The translations under genes were made by a program, and so were the position numbers. The notes beneath the pieces are model-generated. The model worked only from the letters and a program-made list of their open reading frames with translations, made no database searches and had not been told where the DNA came from. DNA of 51,274 nucleotides, the filler included, from Squatina squatina (lineage: Eukaryota): the NCBI GenBank assembly GCA_031763465.1. It is 3 parts of 2 records of this genome, joined end to end, with 100 filler letters (N's around TTAATTAATTAA, not from the genome) between each part and the next. Parts side by side here need not be neighbours in the genome. Positions count along the whole stretch, not along the records: positions 15,889 to 35,195 come from JARFOE010000189.1; 2 more parts are not named here. One strand, given 5' to 3'. Position 1 is the first letter of the stretch. Every line of letters starts with the position of its first letter. Below, in pieces: positions 3,811 through 45,335 of this stretch.

Positions 3811-3993
3811 CTTTAACAGATATTTGTCTAGGATTTCTAAGCCACAGCTGGCACAGATGTTTTTGTCGGCAGAGGCGATGGAGTAAGATGATGAAGGCGG
3901 GGATGAAATAGAAGGAGTGGATGGAGGGCTGGGGGAAGATCGAATCTCGTCCTTCTCCACGTTCGTTCCCAACGTGTCGCCATCAGAGTGGGA
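3811..3993 (-). CDS. LHX6: LHX6 coding exon 3 (Ser/Pro-rich region and start of LIM1)
   Basis: ctacag|TCC CAC...TTA AAG|gtgagg, 183 nt, phase 0/0. Encodes [61 protein letters not shown], collinear with human LHX6 [61 protein letters not shown]. Confidence 0.95.
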
Positions 3994-14532: not shown

Positions 14533-14707
14533 TCATCGCTTGGATTTACGAGCGAGTCTAGAATAGGGAGCAGTTCGTGACTTGTTACCCGGTACTTTGT
14601 CTGTGGGCTTATTGTACGAGTAAGCTGGGGGCCCTGTATATTCAGCATCTGGGTTTTCAGCCATCATTTTAAGCTTGGTTTCGATTGCTTTTATTTTTGC
14701 GCTAATG
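14533..14707 (-). CDS. RBM18: RBM18 last coding exon
   Basis: ctttttatttgcag|C ATT AGC...CGA TGA, 175 nt. Encodes [57 protein letters not shown], versus human [55 protein letters not shown]18 is also the 5' neighbour of LHX6 in human. Confidence 0.95.
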
Positions 14708-15256: not shown

Positions 15257-15683
15257 GCGGTCGGGCACTAGGACTGCGGTGAAACCACTATTGCCGAGGT
15301 CGGGCACTGGGACCGCAGTGAAACCTCTACTGTCAAGTTGGGCACCGAGACCGTGGTGAAACCACTATTGCCGAGGTCGGGCACTGGGACCAGTGAAACC
15401 ACTACTGCCGAAGTCGGGCACTGGGACCACAGTGAAACCACTACTGCCGAAGTCGGGCACTGGGACCGCGGTGAAACCTCTACTGCGAGGTCGGGCACTG
15501 GGACCGCAGTGAAACCACTATTGCCGAGGTCGGGTGCTGGGATCGCAGTGAAACCACCATTGCCGAAGTCGGGCGCTGGGACCGAGGTGTAACCACGATT
15601 GCCGAGGTCGGGCGCTGGGACCGAGGTGTAACCACGATTGCCGAGGTCGGGCGCTGGGACCGCGGTGAAACCACTATTGCCGA
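15257..15683. repeat. GC/CpG-rich minisatellite, ~39-bp unit, ~11 copies
   Basis: Unit gcggtgaaaccactattgccgaggtcgggcactgggacc with point variants and small indels. It lies in the RBM18 intron and produces the 13-aa periodic ORFs. Confidence 0.95.
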
Positions 15684-15788: not shown

Positions 15789-15888
15789 NNNNNNNNNNNN
15801 NNNNNNNNNNNNNNNNNNNNNNNNNNNNNNNNTTAATTAATTAANNNNNNNNNNNNNNNNNNNNNNNNNNNNNNNNNNNNNNNNNNNN
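15789..15888. other. Artificial scaffold-joining linker
   Basis: Exactly 44 N + TTAATTAATTAA + 44 N. The 12-mer has stop codons in all six frames, and the same structure recurs at 35196-35295. Confidence 0.92.
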
Positions 15889-25443: not shown

Positions 25444-28134
25444 CAAATATTTCTGTTATGGTTGGGGAATTCCAGCAATATTGGTATTAAACAATAATAT
25501 TAAAAGTTTCAAGTATTTTTTGAAGCTATATCCCTATTTCTCCAGCAGAGGTGTATGTGTGAGTATATGTAAATATATTCCACTAAACATCAAGGTATTG
25601 AAGACCAAAACATGAATTTGTAAAGCAGGTTTTGGTCAATTGAAAAATTTGTAATGATGTAGCATGTTCTGTATTTGTAATATCCGCTAACGTTAATCTT
25701 GTTGTGTCTGGCTGGATTTTGAATCTAATGCAATATTAACAGTGACAATATAAACTTAAAAGATGCACAAAGGTTGTTTTAAAACTGACCCGCTATTGCA
25801 AAAAATATTTTACTACTTACATTACTAGTTTAAATTAAGGTTAAGCACCAAGGCAACAAGCCTTTGGATTAAGTTTAGGTAGCATGTTCCTATTCAGATT
25901 TAGTGCACGATCCCTTTAAGAGTTTGCCCTCCTTTCTGGACATCACTGAGCTAATGTGAACTCAGACTAGACAGTGCACAGTCCACTGATCTCCTCAAGA
26001 TAATCTGTTCTGTTTTTTCTCAAAAGTGTTTAGATTCCTTTCTAAATAAATAATAGTCATAAAATTAACTGCAACAGATTCATTAACATTAAGTTCAATC
26101 AAATTGTCTGAAAATCACAGTACACAGTTTAAATCACAAGTAAAAAAGCAACAAATTACATAATTGATGAGATGAGGGTTAATAATTATGTAATCAAACT
26201 TCAATATGGAGCAAATGGAGCATAATCAGGAATGAGTGGGGATGAAATATTAGTGAGTGCGACNNNNNNNNNNNNNNNNNNNNNNNNNNNNNNNNNNNNN
26301 NNNNNNNNNNNNNNNNNNNNNNNNNNNNNNNNNNNNNNNNNNNNNNNNNNNNNNNNNNNNNNNATTCCTGCAGTAGTTATTTGATTGGTTGAATCTTCCA
26401 GTAGGTTCAACTCTGTGTTATATATCATTATCCAATATAGAAACACTCAATGCTGTCAAAGCTTCCTTAGCACAGCATTATTAGTAATCTTAGCAAAGCA
26501 CAGCTACATTATTACTGATGGAAAAATGTAAGAAAAATACATTTAAGGAGGTAATAAAATTTGAGGCATAAAAGTAAAAAATGAAAAGAGATGTCTCAAT
26601 ACTGCAGTGCTGATGTCAAAGTAACTTCAGGTGTCAAGGCTATCTGAGCAGAGACACATATGGGCTAAAAGTCCCAGGGACCCAATCCCACCAGAGTTTG
26701 CAGCAGCCGTTAGAGGGTACTTTATTAACATGAAATAGGTTGTGGCAAGCACAACTTCAAGTCTTTCTCTGGCACCTACCTGCCCCATATGCCTCGAAAC
26801 CAGCCTTCACCCACCACTGGGGATGGATTGCCCAGGTCCACCCAATTTCCCAACCCAGGTCACGTTCCCCTTGAACACATACTGTATGACTTCTGGCATA
26901 GAACGTCTCAGAGGAATTTCAGGACTATATATTTCTGTGATTACTGCTCAAGTATGAAGCAGATAGAAGCGATTATTCTGAGGCCAGTTAACCATAGGTC
27001 AGCTAAGGTGTGTGTCTTTGCTGTGCTATGTATCTTGTAACATTTCAATCTACAAAAGTACTTCCTTACTGGAAATCCAACCAACTTCACAGCAGAGCCA
27101 TATATACTACATGTTAAAAGACCAAGAATTGAGCTTTACTGACCATTTTTAAATGGCATAATTAAAAAGAAACAAATTATCAGGAATTACCAAATGTAAC
27201 ATGAACCACTGAAGTATGTTTATTTGAAAAATATAAATACGAATGTATCAAAACCTGCTGAATACAAGATGACACCCTGTAAACATCCTATCTCATAGCA
27301 TGCCCGGACACATGGAGCACACATATTCTTGTCAGACTGTCTGAAAATGAGGCATGGCTTTGTTAATAAGATACTTCATCCGCTGTTGTCTTAGGGATAT
27401 GAGAAGCTGGCAACATGAAGTACTTCAATTTGCGTCATTGCTGCTGTGTCTTTTGTGGACTGTTTGATAAGTATCCTTTGTAGCTATGACACAATATGTT
27501 GATTTAGCTTTCCAGAATCCTATTTAAAACAGCCTTTCTTGCAATTTTTCTCTCTAACCTATTTCACTTCTACCATTTGAGAAAATATCCAACAGTGTAG
27601 GAAAGCCACTTCTGATAGTGTATGAAAGTTATTATGCTCTCAAAGCTACCTATTTGGAATAATGTTTTTCACCATTAGCACTGCCAGACAAACAAAAAAA
27701 TATCTCTTCAATCCACCTTTACCTTATATTACATTAAAGGAGAAGCTGTATGACATTGGGAAGGAATGGCCCTGGAATTCCTGGGAGAGTTGTGGCACTG
27801 TAATGACGCATCAACATTGCAGAGCCCAATTTACGGNNNNNNNNNNNNNNNNNNNNNNNNNNNNNNNNNNNNNNNNNNNNNNNNNNNNNNNNNNNNNNNN
27901 NNNNNNNNNNNNNNNNNNNNNNNNNNNNNNNNNNNNACTTGATTGCCTTATATAATCAGGTGGGGGGATTTCCTAATTTCCCAATATTTCCAGAAATAAG
28001 CAACAGGCTTTTTAGCTCCCTCTGCTTTTATTGCCTTACACTGAATGTACCATTACCAACAGTTGTGGATAGGGGAGTCTTGATGGGTCTATTCTCATGA
28101 TTGGTTTCAAATGCCCAATGTAGTGTGGTTGCAG

Positions 28135-28264
28135 GGAGGAGAAAGAGGACTCAAAGTCCAGTTTCCAACTTTTAGCAGTTTCATCTCCACCATTAACCAG
28201 AAGCAGGAAGCCATTGGTGGTATCAGTTCTCCTGCAAAACCTGTCTTACCTAATGCCAAACATG
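28135..28264 (+). CDS. HECTD2: HECTD2 exon (N-terminal region, equivalent to human exon 2)
   Basis: ttgcag|GGA GGA...CAT G|gtaatc, 130 nt, phase 0/1. Encodes GGERGLKVQFPTFSSFISTINQKQEAIGGISSPAKPVLPNAKH, versus human GLDRGAKGQISTFSSFISAVSPKKEAAENRSSPAHLVFPNIKN. Confidence 0.85.
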
Positions 28265-28547
28265 GTAATCGAATGTGTGCTCTCAAGAGTAATGTTGACT
28301 ACTGCTTGTTGTGAGGTTGTGTTCAAATATGCTTTTGTCTGTTTGGCAGCATTTTGTAAATAATTGTAGCTAAGTTTTGAAATGTGTTTCTTTTTAAATT
28401 TTTCAAATTATATAGCTTTTCTTTTGGGACCTTATTTATACTTCACACTGTTCCCCCAGACAGGGAGGTCAGATGATACGTTCTCAACCTCTGTCCATAC
28501 CACTCTTGAGCTTGCTGCCAGAAGTTGTATGACCGCCCCATTCAGAA

Positions 28548-28820
28548 GCCTTAAAATTAGGGCTTGGCTGTTCAGAGGTGATGTCGGAAAGCACATCTTT
28601 GCACAAAGTGTGGTGGAAATCTGGAACTCCCTGCCCCCAAAAGCTGTTGAAGCTATGTCAATTTGAAAATTTTAGAACTGAGATTGCTAGCTTTTTGTTG
28701 GGTAAGGATATTAAGGCTTATGGAACTAAGGCAGGCAGATGGAGTTAAGATACAGATCAGCAATGATCTAATTGAATAGCAGAACAGGCTCGCATGGCCT
28801 CCTCCTGTTCCTCTGTTCCT
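28548..28820 (+). mobile_element. CR1 LINE 3' end
   Basis: SLKIRAWLFRGDVGKHIFAQSVVEIWNSLPPKAVEA followed by the 3' UTR ...tggcctcctcctgttcct. Confidence 0.85.
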
Positions 28821-29223
28821 AATATTGAGAAGTCATATGGAATTGTAATGGATCAGACTTACCTTAGTGTAGTGTAGTGCATTAGTATCCCTACCTTTCT
28901 GAACTGCAATTATTTAACTTGCTTTATTTGTAAAGTGAAATTCTACCGATTGCTCCAAGAAAGAATTGCCCAAGGTAGTGGGAGAGGGCATTAGCAGTTT
29001 CCATTCTAAATATGGACAGAGGGATAAATAAAATGGGAGAAAAATGGACATCAATTGTGTGCAGATGTAAGATTTTTACTATTAGTATTCAATTCCCAGT
29101 GGCTTTGCAATGCCGAGTCAAGNNNNNNNNNNNNNNNNNNNNNNNNNNNNNNNNNNNNNNNNNNNNNNNNNNNNNNNNNNNNNNNNNNNNNNNNNNNNNN
29201 NNNNNNNNNNNNNNNNNNNNNNC

Positions 29224-29828
29224 TTAACTGGACCAGCCACATAAACACTGTGGCAACAAGAGTAGGTCAGAGGATGGGTATTCTGCGGCAAGTGACTCAC
29301 CTCTGACCTCCCAAAGCCTTTCCACCATCTACAAGGCACAAGTCAGGAGTGTGGTGGAATACCCTCCACTTGCCTGGATGAGTGCAGTTCCAACAACACT
29401 CAAGAAGCTCGACACCATCCAGAACAAAGCAGCCTGCTTGATTGGCACCCCATCACCACCTTCAACATTCACTCCCTCCACCACCGGCGCACCGTGACTG
29501 CAGTGTGCACCATCTACAAGATGCACTGCAGCACCTCCCAAACCCGTGACCTCTACCACCTAGGACAAGGGCAGTAGGTGTATGGGAGCACGATCACCTG
29601 CAAGTTTCCTTCCAAGTTACGCACCATCCTGACTTGGAGGGACATCGTCGTTCCTTCATCGTCGCTGGGTCAAAATCCTGGAACAGCACTGTGGGAGTAC
29701 CTTCACCACAAGGACTGCAGTGGTTCAAGAATGCGTCTCATCACCACCTCCTCAAGGGCAATTAGGGATGGACAATAAATACTGGTCTTGCCAGCGACAC
29801 CCACATCCCAGAACAAATAAAAAAAAAC
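29224..29828 (+). mobile_element. LINE (CR1/L2 group) ORF2 C-terminus and 3' UTR
   Basis: LNWTSHINTVATR...IYKAQVRSVVEY...LKKLDTIQNKAACLIG; 3' end aagggcaattagggatggacaataaat...cacatcccagaacaaataaaaa, shared with copies at 35296-35482 and 45201-45335. Confidence 0.88.
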
Positions 29829-30236
29829 TGTAAGGATAGATTGTTCATCCTGCAACATGTTATCCCAAATATTTCTAACATAGGCTTTAGCTCATAGCAA
29901 ATTGAATCTTGCTGATGGACATTCATTTTTATGGTAAACATGGACAGACTTTTGGGAAGAAACCTCAATTATGGTAGCCTGCATTAGTGTACTGAAATCC
30001 TCACTAAATTAAACAACAGATATGGAAGAAATGTGTCCATTTCATTTCCTTTTAACAATTTAGTTACTTTGTGTCACACAATGATTAATCTAAACACTTT
30101 TGTNNNNNNNNNNTGTACATCATACAACTATAGATGAAAACTAGTTCTAAACCTGTCTTATAAGCCCATCCTCCATCCCAATAGTAAGGTCAGAGTTGCC
30201 AGTATGGTACGGGTGCAGATGGTCAGAATGACTCAC

Positions 30237-30376
30237 CCTGGCAGATCACTGCCGCACGTTCACGGGTTGTACATTTGCCAGACCTTCTCATATCACAGTC
30301 CTGCAGTGTCACCTCATCTCCTTTGCATTTAATGTAAGAAACTGCTTGTGGAATATCTTGCTGACTCACATCAACC
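30237..30376 (-). CDS. Internal exon encoding the C-terminal half of a scavenger receptor cysteine-rich (SRCR) domain; gene unidentified
   Basis: tctgcttttttcag|G GTT GAT...TGC CAG G|gtgagt, 140 nt, open frame, phase 2 in and phase 1 out. Encodes VDVSQQDIPQAVSYIKCKGDEVTLQDCDMRRSGKCTTRERAAVICQ, which fits the SRCR pattern C-x-G-x-E-x-x-L-x-x-C...C...A-x-V-x-C. Confidence 0.8.
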
Positions 30377-30523
30377 CTGAAAAAAGCAGAAACCACAATT
30401 AATTCCCAGTACCATAAAACTGTCCCTCTCAAACTGCTTTAAATCTTCCCTTACTGTGTGTTAATGCTTTCTTTATTTTTGTGTAAACCATGTCTTTATA
30501 TTTTATTTTCCATTAATTCATAG

Positions 30524-30613
30524 TGGGATGCCAATGCACCTTTTAATACAATAGACGATCCAGGCATTAATGTTAAATTTACAAACAGTGTTTATGACGC
30601 TTTGCTGAGCACA
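30524..30613 (+). CDS. HECTD2: HECTD2 exon
   Basis: ttcatag|TGG GAT...AGC ACA|gtgagt, 90 nt, phase 0/0. Encodes WDANAPFNTIDDPGINVKFTNSVYDALLST, versus human KDATASFNTIEDSGINAKFVNAVYDTLLNT. Confidence 0.92.
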
Positions 30614-31308
30614 GTGAGTATATTTTTAGCATCTTTAGCCAAATATAAAAAGTTTAAAACTTCAGTTTATAAATTGAATACTTTTCAGGGAAAGACTCTT
30701 CCAATACCTTTAGAGAATGCCACCTCATAAAGTACAATGACAGCACTGTAATACCATAGCAACCAGTTTGAGACTGATACCTGCTTAGAGTGATCAGTTA
30801 GACTGCTGGCTCCACATTACTGTCTGGCCAGGAAAAAAGTAGCTATACATATATGTGCTGTGATACAAATCTATAAAAGTAAATTGTAAGTTTGAATCAA
30901 TTCTCAAATGTTTGGAATACTGCATAACAACTTACAGTGAGCATTAGTGAAGAAACATTTACAAATGTGTTGCTGTCACATTACAAGACATCAAATGATG
31001 CAACAGGACTTTACTAGTTAAAGTGTTGCACCAAGTTACACACAACAACTTTATGAGCAGAATAATACAATGTGGATTATATAGTATAGTGCTCCTTTCC
31101 TTATGAAGCTTATCAATCTACCATACGCAACACCATGGAAGATCTGCTTTATAAAGCCCTTTGCTAAGCAGTATTGGTTTATAGTGAATACTACTACATT
31201 GTGGATATTAACTAATAAAATATACCGAGATTGATGTGTTGCTCTCTTTTGTACAATTAAAATCGATTGAATATATATGTATCAACCACAGGCTGTTGCT
31301 ATTTTCAG

Positions 31309-31373
31309 CCCCAGGACATCCAGAAAACAGTATTGAAAGGGATTATTAACAGCCTGCTGAGAGAATGGAAAGG
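31309..31373 (+). CDS. HECTD2: HECTD2 exon
   Basis: ttttcag|CCC CAG...AAA GG|gtaaga, 65 nt, phase 0/2. Encodes PQDIQKTVLKGIINSLLREWK(G), versus human PQDVQKTVLKGIINSLLREWKG. Confidence 0.95.
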
Positions 31374-31665
31374 GTAAGATTTAGATGTATCTTTTTAAAT
31401 GAACCTAACAGTTGTTTTGATGTTCAGTCTGTAGATTTGTGCAGTAGCCTGGAAAGTATCTGATTATAACAGATGCACATGGATGGTAGATTCTGTTCTG
31501 ATTTGCTTTGTATAGAGAAAAGCAAGATTATTACTGAACATATTCCCAGTGATTTGATGACAGCATGCAAGGGTGGGAGAAGTTCAAATTTTCACACGTT
31601 CTTCCATGTTCCCATTGGTTTCAGTGGGAGAAGAGGGTGCCACCTCTGCAATCACCAAAGAGTAG

Positions 31666-32810
31666 GGAGGCCCAATGGATCCTGCAGTGCAGGTGCAGAA
31701 TGGGCGTAAGTCATTTCTGGTGCAAAGGTCCAATGCTTCAGAATTCGTCCTCGTCTTGCGCCAGTGTCCAATGGGCACTTGCTGCTGTGCGCTGCTGGTG
31801 TGGTGTCCGCCGGCAGCAGGCTTCCATGGCATCATCACCCTGCGCACCATCCAAAATGGCCACCACGTTCAAAATTGGTATGCGTCCAGAACTTTAAAAA
31901 TCGGCGGGCCCCGTGCCCGGTTTCTCACGGTGACACACTCCATCTTGTGAATTACGGCGCTATTTAAAGGGGTAGAAGGGTGCGCCATTTTGCTTGAAGA
32001 AATCGCATTGCTGAAGGTCCATTCGGATTGAGGCATTGTTTGCGAATCGGGAGCTCTATTCCCAAAGAAACCTTTGCTTTTGGCTGAGCATTTCAGTGCT
32101 CAGGTGAACTTTCAAAATCAGGCATGGGTGCTGCTTTAGCGGTGGATTTNNNNNNNNNNNNNNNNNNNNNNNNNNNNNNNNNNNNNNNNNNNNNNNNNNN
32201 NNNNNNNNNNNNNNNNNNNNNNNNNNNNNNNNNNNNNNNNNNNNNNNNNCTGTGCCAGTCCTCGCCGCCACATCTGAGGCTGACACCGTCATGGCTATAT
32301 CCCTCCACAGACCACGCACAAGCCTGGCAGTGCCTCTTCTGCTGCCGCTACTGAATAGTGTGGCTGTCCTTCTGGATACAGATGAGACAAGAGTCTCAAG
32401 GGCGAGTCTGTGAATTTTGGGGCCCTTGGGCCTCTCCCATGACCTGCCATTCGCAAAGCTTCACACAACAGTTTCTGGCACCGGCAAACAGCTTCCTGTT
32501 CCCCTCTCCAAAGTGATCTGAGCACTGATTTGCTACCTTTCATGAGGCCCTTCAAGGGCTGAGGTGGGCTTACAAGTCATTAAGAGCAGTCGACTAAAAC
32601 AAAGAATTGGGCCCAAGAAGATATTGACGCCCATTTAACACTGCACCTGAACTTCATTGCGCTCATTTCTAGCTCAGTTTTGATCCTATCTCAAATTTTT
32701 TTTCTAAGAGACAAATTTCCGGGCCCAATTTCTGAGCGCAAAACAGACGCAAAAAACACACTTAGTCATCTGCTTAAGTTACCAGCACGACACAAGCCAA
32801 TTGGGCCCCC
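31666..32810. mobile_element. PIF/Harbinger transposon with both ends visible (middle in a gap), in a HECTD2 intron
   Basis: Left end GGAGGCCCAAT and right end (reverse complement) GGGGGCCCAAT, both flanked by TAG (31663-31665 and 32811-32813). A minus-strand Myb/SANT start at 32450 reads MAGHGRGPRAPKFTDS, then after one frameshift LETLVSSVSRRTATLF...LWRDIAMTVSASDVAARTGT. Confidence 0.7.
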
Positions 32811-34598: not shown

Positions 34599-34644
34599 AC
34601 CACGGACAAAAGATGACCTTCGAGCTTATTTTTTACTTGTGCAG
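34599..34644 (+). CDS. HECTD2: HECTD2 exon
   Basis: tttttag|A CCA CGG...GTG CAG|gtatga, 46 nt, phase 2/0. Encodes PRTKDDLRAYFLLVQ, versus human PRTKDDLRAYFILLQ. Confidence 0.95.
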
Positions 34645-35019: not shown

Positions 35020-35129
35020 AATCCTCAGTTTGCGAGCACATCGACATATGTCATCTACGCCCATTTGTTAAGGCAGACTGCCACTTTGTCTGAAGCGGAT
35101 CACCACTTTCTGGTTCACTGGCTTAAAAA
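35020..35129 (+). CDS. HECTD2: HECTD2 exon
   Basis: cttgtag|AAT CCT...AAA AA|gtaaaa, 110 nt, phase 0/2. Encodes NPQFASTSTYVIYAHLLRQTATLSEADHHFLVHWLK, versus human NPQFNNTSTYVIYAHLLRQIATLVEADHHFLVHWFK. Confidence 0.95.
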
Positions 35130-35195: not shown

Positions 35196-35295
35196 NNNNN
35201 NNNNNNNNNNNNNNNNNNNNNNNNNNNNNNNNNNNNNNNTTAATTAATTAANNNNNNNNNNNNNNNNNNNNNNNNNNNNNNNNNNNNNNNNNNNN
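35196..35295. other. Artificial scaffold-joining linker
   Basis: 44 N + TTAATTAATTAA (35240-35251) + 44 N, identical in structure to 15789-15888. Confidence 0.92.
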
Positions 35296-35482
35296 ACAAC
35301 CTGAGCTTTTATCGCACTGGTTCCCTCCCCCTCCCTTACTGCTTACCTAACAGAACCTTCGCCGCACGGACTGCAGAGGTTGAAGAACGTAACTCCCCAC
35401 CATCTTCTCAAGGGCAACTAGCGATGGACAATAAATGCCGGATTGCCAGCGATGCCCACATCATGAGAATGAATTTAAAAAA
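35296..35482 (+). mobile_element. LINE 3' end (same family as 29224-29828)
   Basis: ctcaagggcaactagcgatggacaataaatgccggattgccagcgatgcccacatc. Confidence 0.8.
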
Positions 35483-45200: not shown

Positions 45201-45335
45201 GGAGTTCCTTCACCACAAGGACTGCAGCAGTTCAAGAAGGCGGCTCATCACCACCTTCTCAAGGGCAACTAGGGATGAGCAATAAATGCTGGCCTTGCCA
45301 GCGATGCCCACATCCCAGGAACGAATAAAAACAAT
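45201..45335 (+). mobile_element. LINE 3' end (same family as 29224-29828)
   Basis: caccacaaggactgcagcagttcaagaaggcggctcatcaccaccttctcaagggcaactagggatg...aataaatgctggccttgccagcgatgcccacatccc. Confidence 0.85.

Follow-up and report, generated by a model that had tools for sequence, protein, structure and literature searches.

The lone minus-strand exon at positions 30237 to 30376 of the window (the whole stretch of 51,274 nt of Squatina squatina DNA that was analysed) is, as judged from its sequence, one exon of a gene that is already known as an uncharacterised RefSeq entry, and whose product combines a Link module, a mucin-like region, a CUB domain, an SRCR domain and two COLFI/fibrinogen-like domains. 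This gene is referred to below as the donor gene. The exon lies antisense within a copy of HECTD2, where it is either an ordinary stray copy or the product of an artefact. It is about an even bet that the exon, together with its intron stubs, is a young DNA-level copy that was inserted into the HECTD2 copy and would be inert there. The features on which the argument depends are listed here; the numbers of the HECTD2 exons (2, 3-4 and 5-8) follow the human gene.

15789 to 15888: spacer N44-TTAATTAATTAA-N44 with stops in six frames, at the left end of the 19.3-kb scaffold.
28135 to 28264, plus strand: HECTD2 exon 2, 130 nt, ending in phase 1, with a private Pro to Leu change.
29223 to 29830, plus strand: remnant of a dispersed repeat (from matches within the window), A-rich at its tail and directly after a 100-N gap, probably the 3' end of a LINE.
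30114 to 30236, minus strand: intron stub 3' of the SRCR exon, opening with a GTGAGT donor and reaching the 10-N gap; putatively of the donor gene, with its left junction unplaced.
30237 to 30376, minus strand: orphan SRCR exon, the C-terminal half (four of six cysteines) of the only SRCR domain, one of group A, in the Link-mucin-CUB-SRCR-2xCOLFI-like gene product (from Pfam, ortholog identity and boundary fit).
30377 to 30523: spacer of 147 nt made of two back-to-back intron 3' ends, with a putative junction at about 30420 to 30440.
30524 to 30613, plus strand: HECTD2 exon 5, 90 nt, phase 0-0, opening with the codon TGG.
31309 to 31373, plus strand: HECTD2 exon 6, intact.
34599 to 34644, plus strand: HECTD2 exon 7, intact.
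35020 to 35129, plus strand: HECTD2 exon 8, with a private Phe to Leu change; the scaffold ends 66 nt further on.
35196 to 35295: second, identical N44-TTAATTAATTAA-N44 spacer, at the right end of the scaffold.

The SRCR exon runs from 30376 to 30237 (140 nt), between a 3' splice site that reads ...ttctgcttttttcag/G and a 5' splice site that reads CAGG/gtgagt. When the whole window was scanned strictly for exons it ranked third among ten candidates, and a looser scan gave it the top score. Its 46 open codons include four cysteines, it is entered in phase 2 and left in phase 1, and these phases agree with the Arg that precedes and the Val that follows the same segment in shark orthologs. The peptide matches positions 59-100 of the 100 in Pfam PF00530 (E 3.6e-6), i.e., it starts in the middle of the domain, and its 27.7 bits are above the curated cut-off of 26.1 bits. 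One gap-free piece, 30114-32149 (2036 nt), carries both this exon and the HECTD2 exon at 30524-30613. The sequence thus bears out what an earlier note on this DNA had described, namely an intact internal half-domain exon of 140 nt with a strong acceptor, a GTGAGT donor, four cysteines and an exit at a phase-1 intron, lying 147 bp from a HECTD2 exon with no gap in between; the SRCR HMM search proposed there as a check came out positive as well.

A search among longer proteins with the exon peptide gave two matches among three candidates, both of them Cetorhinus LOC144678793 (80% identity over the full peptide), and Carcharodon LOC121276571 falls in the same cluster. Over all 46 residues the peptide is 76-83% identical to the orthologs of five galeomorph species (80-83% for Cetorhinus, Scyliorhinus torazame and Heterodontus). 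It shares 35-38 of the 46 residues with four galeomorph genera other than carpet sharks, as compared with 34-39 between those genera, and has a single private residue among the orthologs compared, whereas the SRCR domains of other fetched proteins reach at most 38% identity. In a tree of 24 rows and 46 columns the exon falls inside the family clade of 18 rows (support 100/100) on an end branch of ordinary length (0.088). Both its sequence and its boundaries match the family orthologs. With LOC144678793, LOC121276571 and XP_067866191 (Heterodontus) it has in common the identity, the boundary residues and an SRCR domain present in single copy; it differs from them in standing alone and in having HECTD2 as its neighbourhood.

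Other origins of the exon were considered and rejected. Neurotrypsin (PRSS12), to whose first SRCR domain the peptide had been likened with the reservation that the match could be generic, gave E 0.11 for its solved SRCR structure, and a kringle-SRCR-trypsin protein, which is placed outside the family clade (100/100), was 38% identical as compared with 83% for a true ortholog. The best single domain of CD163 scored 17 bits against the peptide. What neurotrypsin and CD163 share with the exon is the generic SRCR cysteine pattern at weak scores, and the earlier reservation was justified. Within the family clade the exon groups with elasmobranch orthologs, which argues against an ancient paralog native to the HECTD2 locus, the fork having a support of only 82/66. 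A scan of metagenomes returned one locus from 233 stretches, with 62% GC, a short run of residues and no cysteine pattern, and this was regarded as chance. Rfam over 28000-32200 returned only one match, at chance level (E 0.13).

Group A SRCR domains lack C1 and C4. In all four donor proteins checked, the SRCR domain has six cysteines, four of which lie within its last 46 residues. Group-A domains are described as having six cysteines and being encoded by two exons in PMC3100851, which also gives the disulfide pattern of group B. The donor domain, likewise with six cysteines and two exons, is a group-A domain, and at the window locus the first of the two exons is absent: no exon for the first half of the domain was found in the window (best match about E 0.14-0.15). 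From the group-B pattern and the lack of C1 and C4 in group A it follows that two of the four cysteines of the exon would pair with the missing exon, and the orphan exon would therefore be unable to yield a folded SRCR domain.

The note had proposed that an SRCR gene and HECTD2 are interleaved in antisense, with at least one HECTD2 exon between this exon and the SRCR exon upstream of it. This arrangement is not found in the three other sharks that could be compared: in each of them the two genes occupy separate chromosome-scale contigs, with the donor gene on a contig of 233 Mb and HECTD2 on one of 122 Mb in Carcharodon, 212 and 97 Mb in Cetorhinus, and 227 and 93 Mb in Heterodontus. The suggested check, whether orthologous exons map inside HECTD2 in chromosome-level shark assemblies, thus turned out against the proposal; as the comparison is one of annotated proteins in three sharks, it excludes a conserved interleaving of whole genes and still allows an unannotated orphan exon in the HECTD2 of other sharks. 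When 36 family proteins were compared with the window, 35 matched (E<0.05), all at this single exon. No other donor-gene exon was found in the 14.3 kb downstream or the 4.8 kb upstream on the scaffold, nor elsewhere in the window, within the limits set by the gaps and the scaffold ends. The same limits apply to the Link, CUB and COLFI-like exons, which are absent from the window as an ordered series. A sensitive exon-by-exon search of the whole window with the first half of the SRCR domain, the end of the CUB domain and the next 120 residues gave a best E of 0.14. Read more simply, the upstream exon lies outside this locus altogether.

The native neighbourhood of the donor gene may be a different one altogether. 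The Polypterus protein KAG2458456.1 has FASTKD3 domains (residues 98-261) joined to the pair of domains with which donor-family proteins end (321-729), and shares one 209-Mb contig with the full ortholog. It is likely an annotation fusion of neighbours, and hints that FASTKD3 is the native neighbour of the donor gene. It is conceivable that a complete, working SRCR gene came to lie antisense with HECTD2 after a lineage-specific move, with its remaining exons beyond the scaffold or in gaps: the exon and both of its splice sites are perfect and undecayed, and a shark intron may be longer than the whole 19.3-kb scaffold. However, such an arrangement requires both the lineage-specific move of a large gene and HECTD2 exons that are concealed at just that site, and we regard it as highly improbable in view of the separate chromosomes in three of three sharks, the different neighbourhood to which the Polypterus fusion model points, the lack of any further donor exon in the window, the absence of HECTD2 exons 3-4 at the very place, and the grouping of the exon with elasmobranch orthologs and not as an old paralog of the HECTD2 locus (fork 82/66). 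A search of the open-access literature found no publication on an SRCR gene within HECTD2.

The five exons of the HECTD2 copy are in the correct order with all frames open and GT-AG sites intact, and the exon at 30524-30613 shares 93% identity with the HECTD2 proteins of two sharks, Heterodontus and Heptranchias. HECTD2 residues about 84-164 (81 codons, exons 3-4) are missing where the SRCR exon sits, and the exons that flank the missing codons are only 2.26 kb apart. As exon 2 ends in phase 1 and exon 5 starts in phase 0, splicing of the one to the other would shift the frame. The first codon of exon 5, 30524-30526, is TGG (Trp) at a position that is Arg in nine of nine aligned shark and ray proteins, which hints at a decaying copy or else reflects a variant or an erroneous base. 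Compared over 145 residues, the HECTD2 of the window shows three changes at positions that are invariant in seven orthologs, within the ortholog range of 0-5. These three private changes (P>L, R>W and F>L) are more radical by BLOSUM62 than the 13 of the orthologs: only 10 of 560 triples score as low, or 37 of 680 when one change at a hand-placed gap is retained, in a test that was post hoc and concerns three changes. This is a mild sign of relaxed selection on the window HECTD2.

The junction between the two genes presumably lies in the 147-nt spacer. The best compositional change point is at 30435, with 30399 and 30420-30421 nearly equal, and its score was reached in 11 of 1000 shuffles; two polypyrimidine tracts at back-to-back intron ends would give such a skew under any model. 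Tn5, TruSeq and Hi-C junction motifs are all absent from the spacer, and the one Arima-type motif in the vicinity lies outside it at 30083 and is one of 17 in the window. The longest exact match of the spacer elsewhere in the window, to which this repeat test was confined, is 12 nt. Around a gene fragment captured by a transposon of the Pack-MULE or Helitron type, terminal inverted repeats, a target-site duplication or element termini would be expected. The repeat search gave 42 families of direct repeats and 58 inverted pairs, and none of the 20 and 25 of these that were listed was conspicuous as a target-site duplication or a terminal inverted repeat; the 13-nt inverted pair at 29924 and 30410 is one of those 58 short, chance-level pairs.

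Two readings of the junction have to be weighed. The first is that a functional donor exon was misjoined to a HECTD2 intron, through a chimeric library molecule or a graph error, and was then scaffolded, so that the locus does not exist in the animal. This is a serious contender, to which we give somewhat less than an even chance. The scaffold consists of 14 pieces of 651-2036 nt (0.65-2 kb) separated by fixed gaps of 10 and 100 N, with a 10-N gap 123 nt from the SRCR exon and a repeat-bounded 100-N gap close by; the exon, as a functional ortholog would, shows no decay; the two genes are on different chromosomes in three of three sharks; and the loss of HECTD2 exons 3-4 is what a broken contig would produce. 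Against a misjoin, the junction lies in contiguous, non-repetitive sequence with no library motif, the HECTD2 exons to the left and to the right of the SRCR piece have the correct order and strand, and the window HECTD2 shows the mild sign of relaxed selection. Repeat-induced misjoins usually show repeats or a signature at the junction, and many chimeras leave no signature.

The second reading, that the exon is a young inert DNA copy, is narrowly favoured over the first, whose only weaknesses are that neither a repeat nor a library signature marks the junction and that HECTD2 gives a mild signal. It draws on the position of the junction within a gap-free, non-repetitive piece of 2036 nt that has no library motif, and is opposed by the composition of the scaffold from 14 small pieces, by the intact splice sites and frames of HECTD2 and by private changes that stay within range. 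As the exon is as conserved as functional orthologs, a misplaced functional exon fits equally well. The presence of intron flanks, acceptor and donor, on both sides of the exon and the lack of a fused neighbouring exon led us to reject a processed retrocopy of an mRNA.

If the copy is real, break repair was plausibly templated on donor-gene DNA, the exon with short intron stubs being thereby copied into HECTD2. The insertion would span about 0.2-0.6 kb provided that it does not reach leftward into the repeat remnant, which ends at 29830; it would not exceed 2.2 kb, and its right junction would fall at about 30420-30440. The host may be a decaying partial duplicate of HECTD2 that lost exons 3-4 in the same event or, alternatively, an intact HECTD2 whose exons 3-4 are hidden in the 100-N gap. 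Being antisense to its host, half a domain and devoid of partner exons, the inserted copy would be inert. The insertion would also be young because the peptide shows no decay; by a rough calculation with assumed rates, at about 1% of neutral drift one amino-acid change would be expected in this exon, and a stop or frameshift would be as likely absent as present. Templated insertions of heterologous sequence by alt-EJ and MM-BIR, in germlines also, are described in PMC7407515. The present case would resemble them as a short piece from another chromosome, here with intron flanks, at a site where host exons are missing; its junction is placed only roughly, from the sequence alone.

Two further possibilities appear remote. 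First, the locus could be part of a larger real rearrangement, a translocation or a segmental-duplication mosaic, to which the left contig with HECTD2 exon 2 was merely scaffolded. Only the right junction can be placed, and the left side crosses two gaps, as this would allow, but no downstream donor exon occurs in the 14.3 kb to the left, where HECTD2 exon 2 is found in the right order and on the right strand; we consider this most improbable. Second, exon shuffling could be in progress, for which we see only a slim chance: a rearrangement in this shark lineage would have carried the SRCR exon, or even the entire donor gene if its introns are very long, into HECTD2, and the exon, with both splice sites intact, would be spliced into a minus-strand antisense transcript.

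Should the junction be real and the copy inert, it would add another short interchromosomal DNA copy to those of vertebrate germlines and be a minor curiosity, with the reservation that copies of intact exons are raw material for exon shuffling. Should it be a misjoin, it cautions against inferring gene order when an assembly is fragmented. Of more lasting value is a side result, the donor gene, whose product is likely secreted and which ranges from chimaera to frogs.

Members of the donor family are LOC144678793, LOC121276571, XP_067866191 and their orthologs, labelled "uncharacterised" in RefSeq, and no publication on the gene was found in a search of the open-access literature. The product has 1200-1800 residues, only one exon of which is in the window, and is ordered from an N-terminal hydrophobic stretch through a Link module, a Ser/Thr-rich region (22-27% Ser/Thr), one CUB and one SRCR domain to a duplicated C-terminal COLFI/neurexin-4-like domain. 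There is no later hydrophobic stretch in the shark family proteins checked. A search of the structure atlas (ESM Atlas) with one C-terminal domain returned COLFI/neurexin-4-like clusters at 0.93-0.94; residues 960-1594 of a family protein gave no usable match there. The best match of the Link module among solved structures is TSG-6 (TNFAIP6; E 1.8e-19, tied with aggrecan), which has Link and CUB domains as the donor protein does. The donor protein has in addition the Ser/Thr-rich spacer, the SRCR domain and the two COLFI/neurexin-4-like domains, and the likeness to TSG-6 is one of domains only.

Residues 615-1245 of the Carcharodon protein, used as query, gave 64 matches among 6250 candidates, 34 of which have Link, CUB and SRCR domains together. 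These 34 are from sharks, skate, chimaera, reedfish, paddlefish, sturgeon, gar, bowfin, three elopomorph teleosts, axolotl and frogs. Neither an amniote protein among the 34 nor any match from the zebrafish lineage was found in this single search, on which the range of the family rests; since it was limited to protein lengths of 689-2195, the absence from amniotes is no proof of loss. The suggestion that the SRCR gene may be an extracellular gene kept in cartilaginous fish is in line with a product that is likely extracellular, with orthologs in sharks, skate and chimaera, and with the lack of an amniote ortholog in this search. Family proteins are 52-96% identical across the C-terminal region, and their automatic names vary (versican-like, neurexin-4-like, DMBT1). 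Judged by its domains, the family may represent a hyaluronan-binding protein of the matrix or the mucosa that has gone unstudied in anamniotes, possibly a TSG-6-like matrix protein that was lost in amniotes.

The two 100-nt spacers are, we infer, artificial joins between scaffolds, and the window has the appearance of three artificially joined scaffolds from a fragmented assembly, so that gene order across 15789-15888 and 35196-35295 is no evidence of synteny. In human, RBM18 lies beside LHX6. To the left of the first spacer, on another scaffold, are two minus-strand LIM-homeobox exons, 1626-1747 (Pfam LIM, E 4.3e-11) and 3811-3993, presumably of LHX6 (or LHX8), and a terminal coding exon at about 14533-14707, also minus, that has no Pfam match and in our view resembles the RBM18 C-terminus. 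True synteny of LHX6/RBM18 with HECTD2 was rejected, the artificial spacer at 15789-15888 lying between them. The dispersed repeat remnant recurs in the window, its segment 29694-29826 matching 45201-45334 (88%) and 35352-35482 (78%). A GC-rich tandem array with 11 copies of 39 nt (86% matches) occupies 15259-15683.
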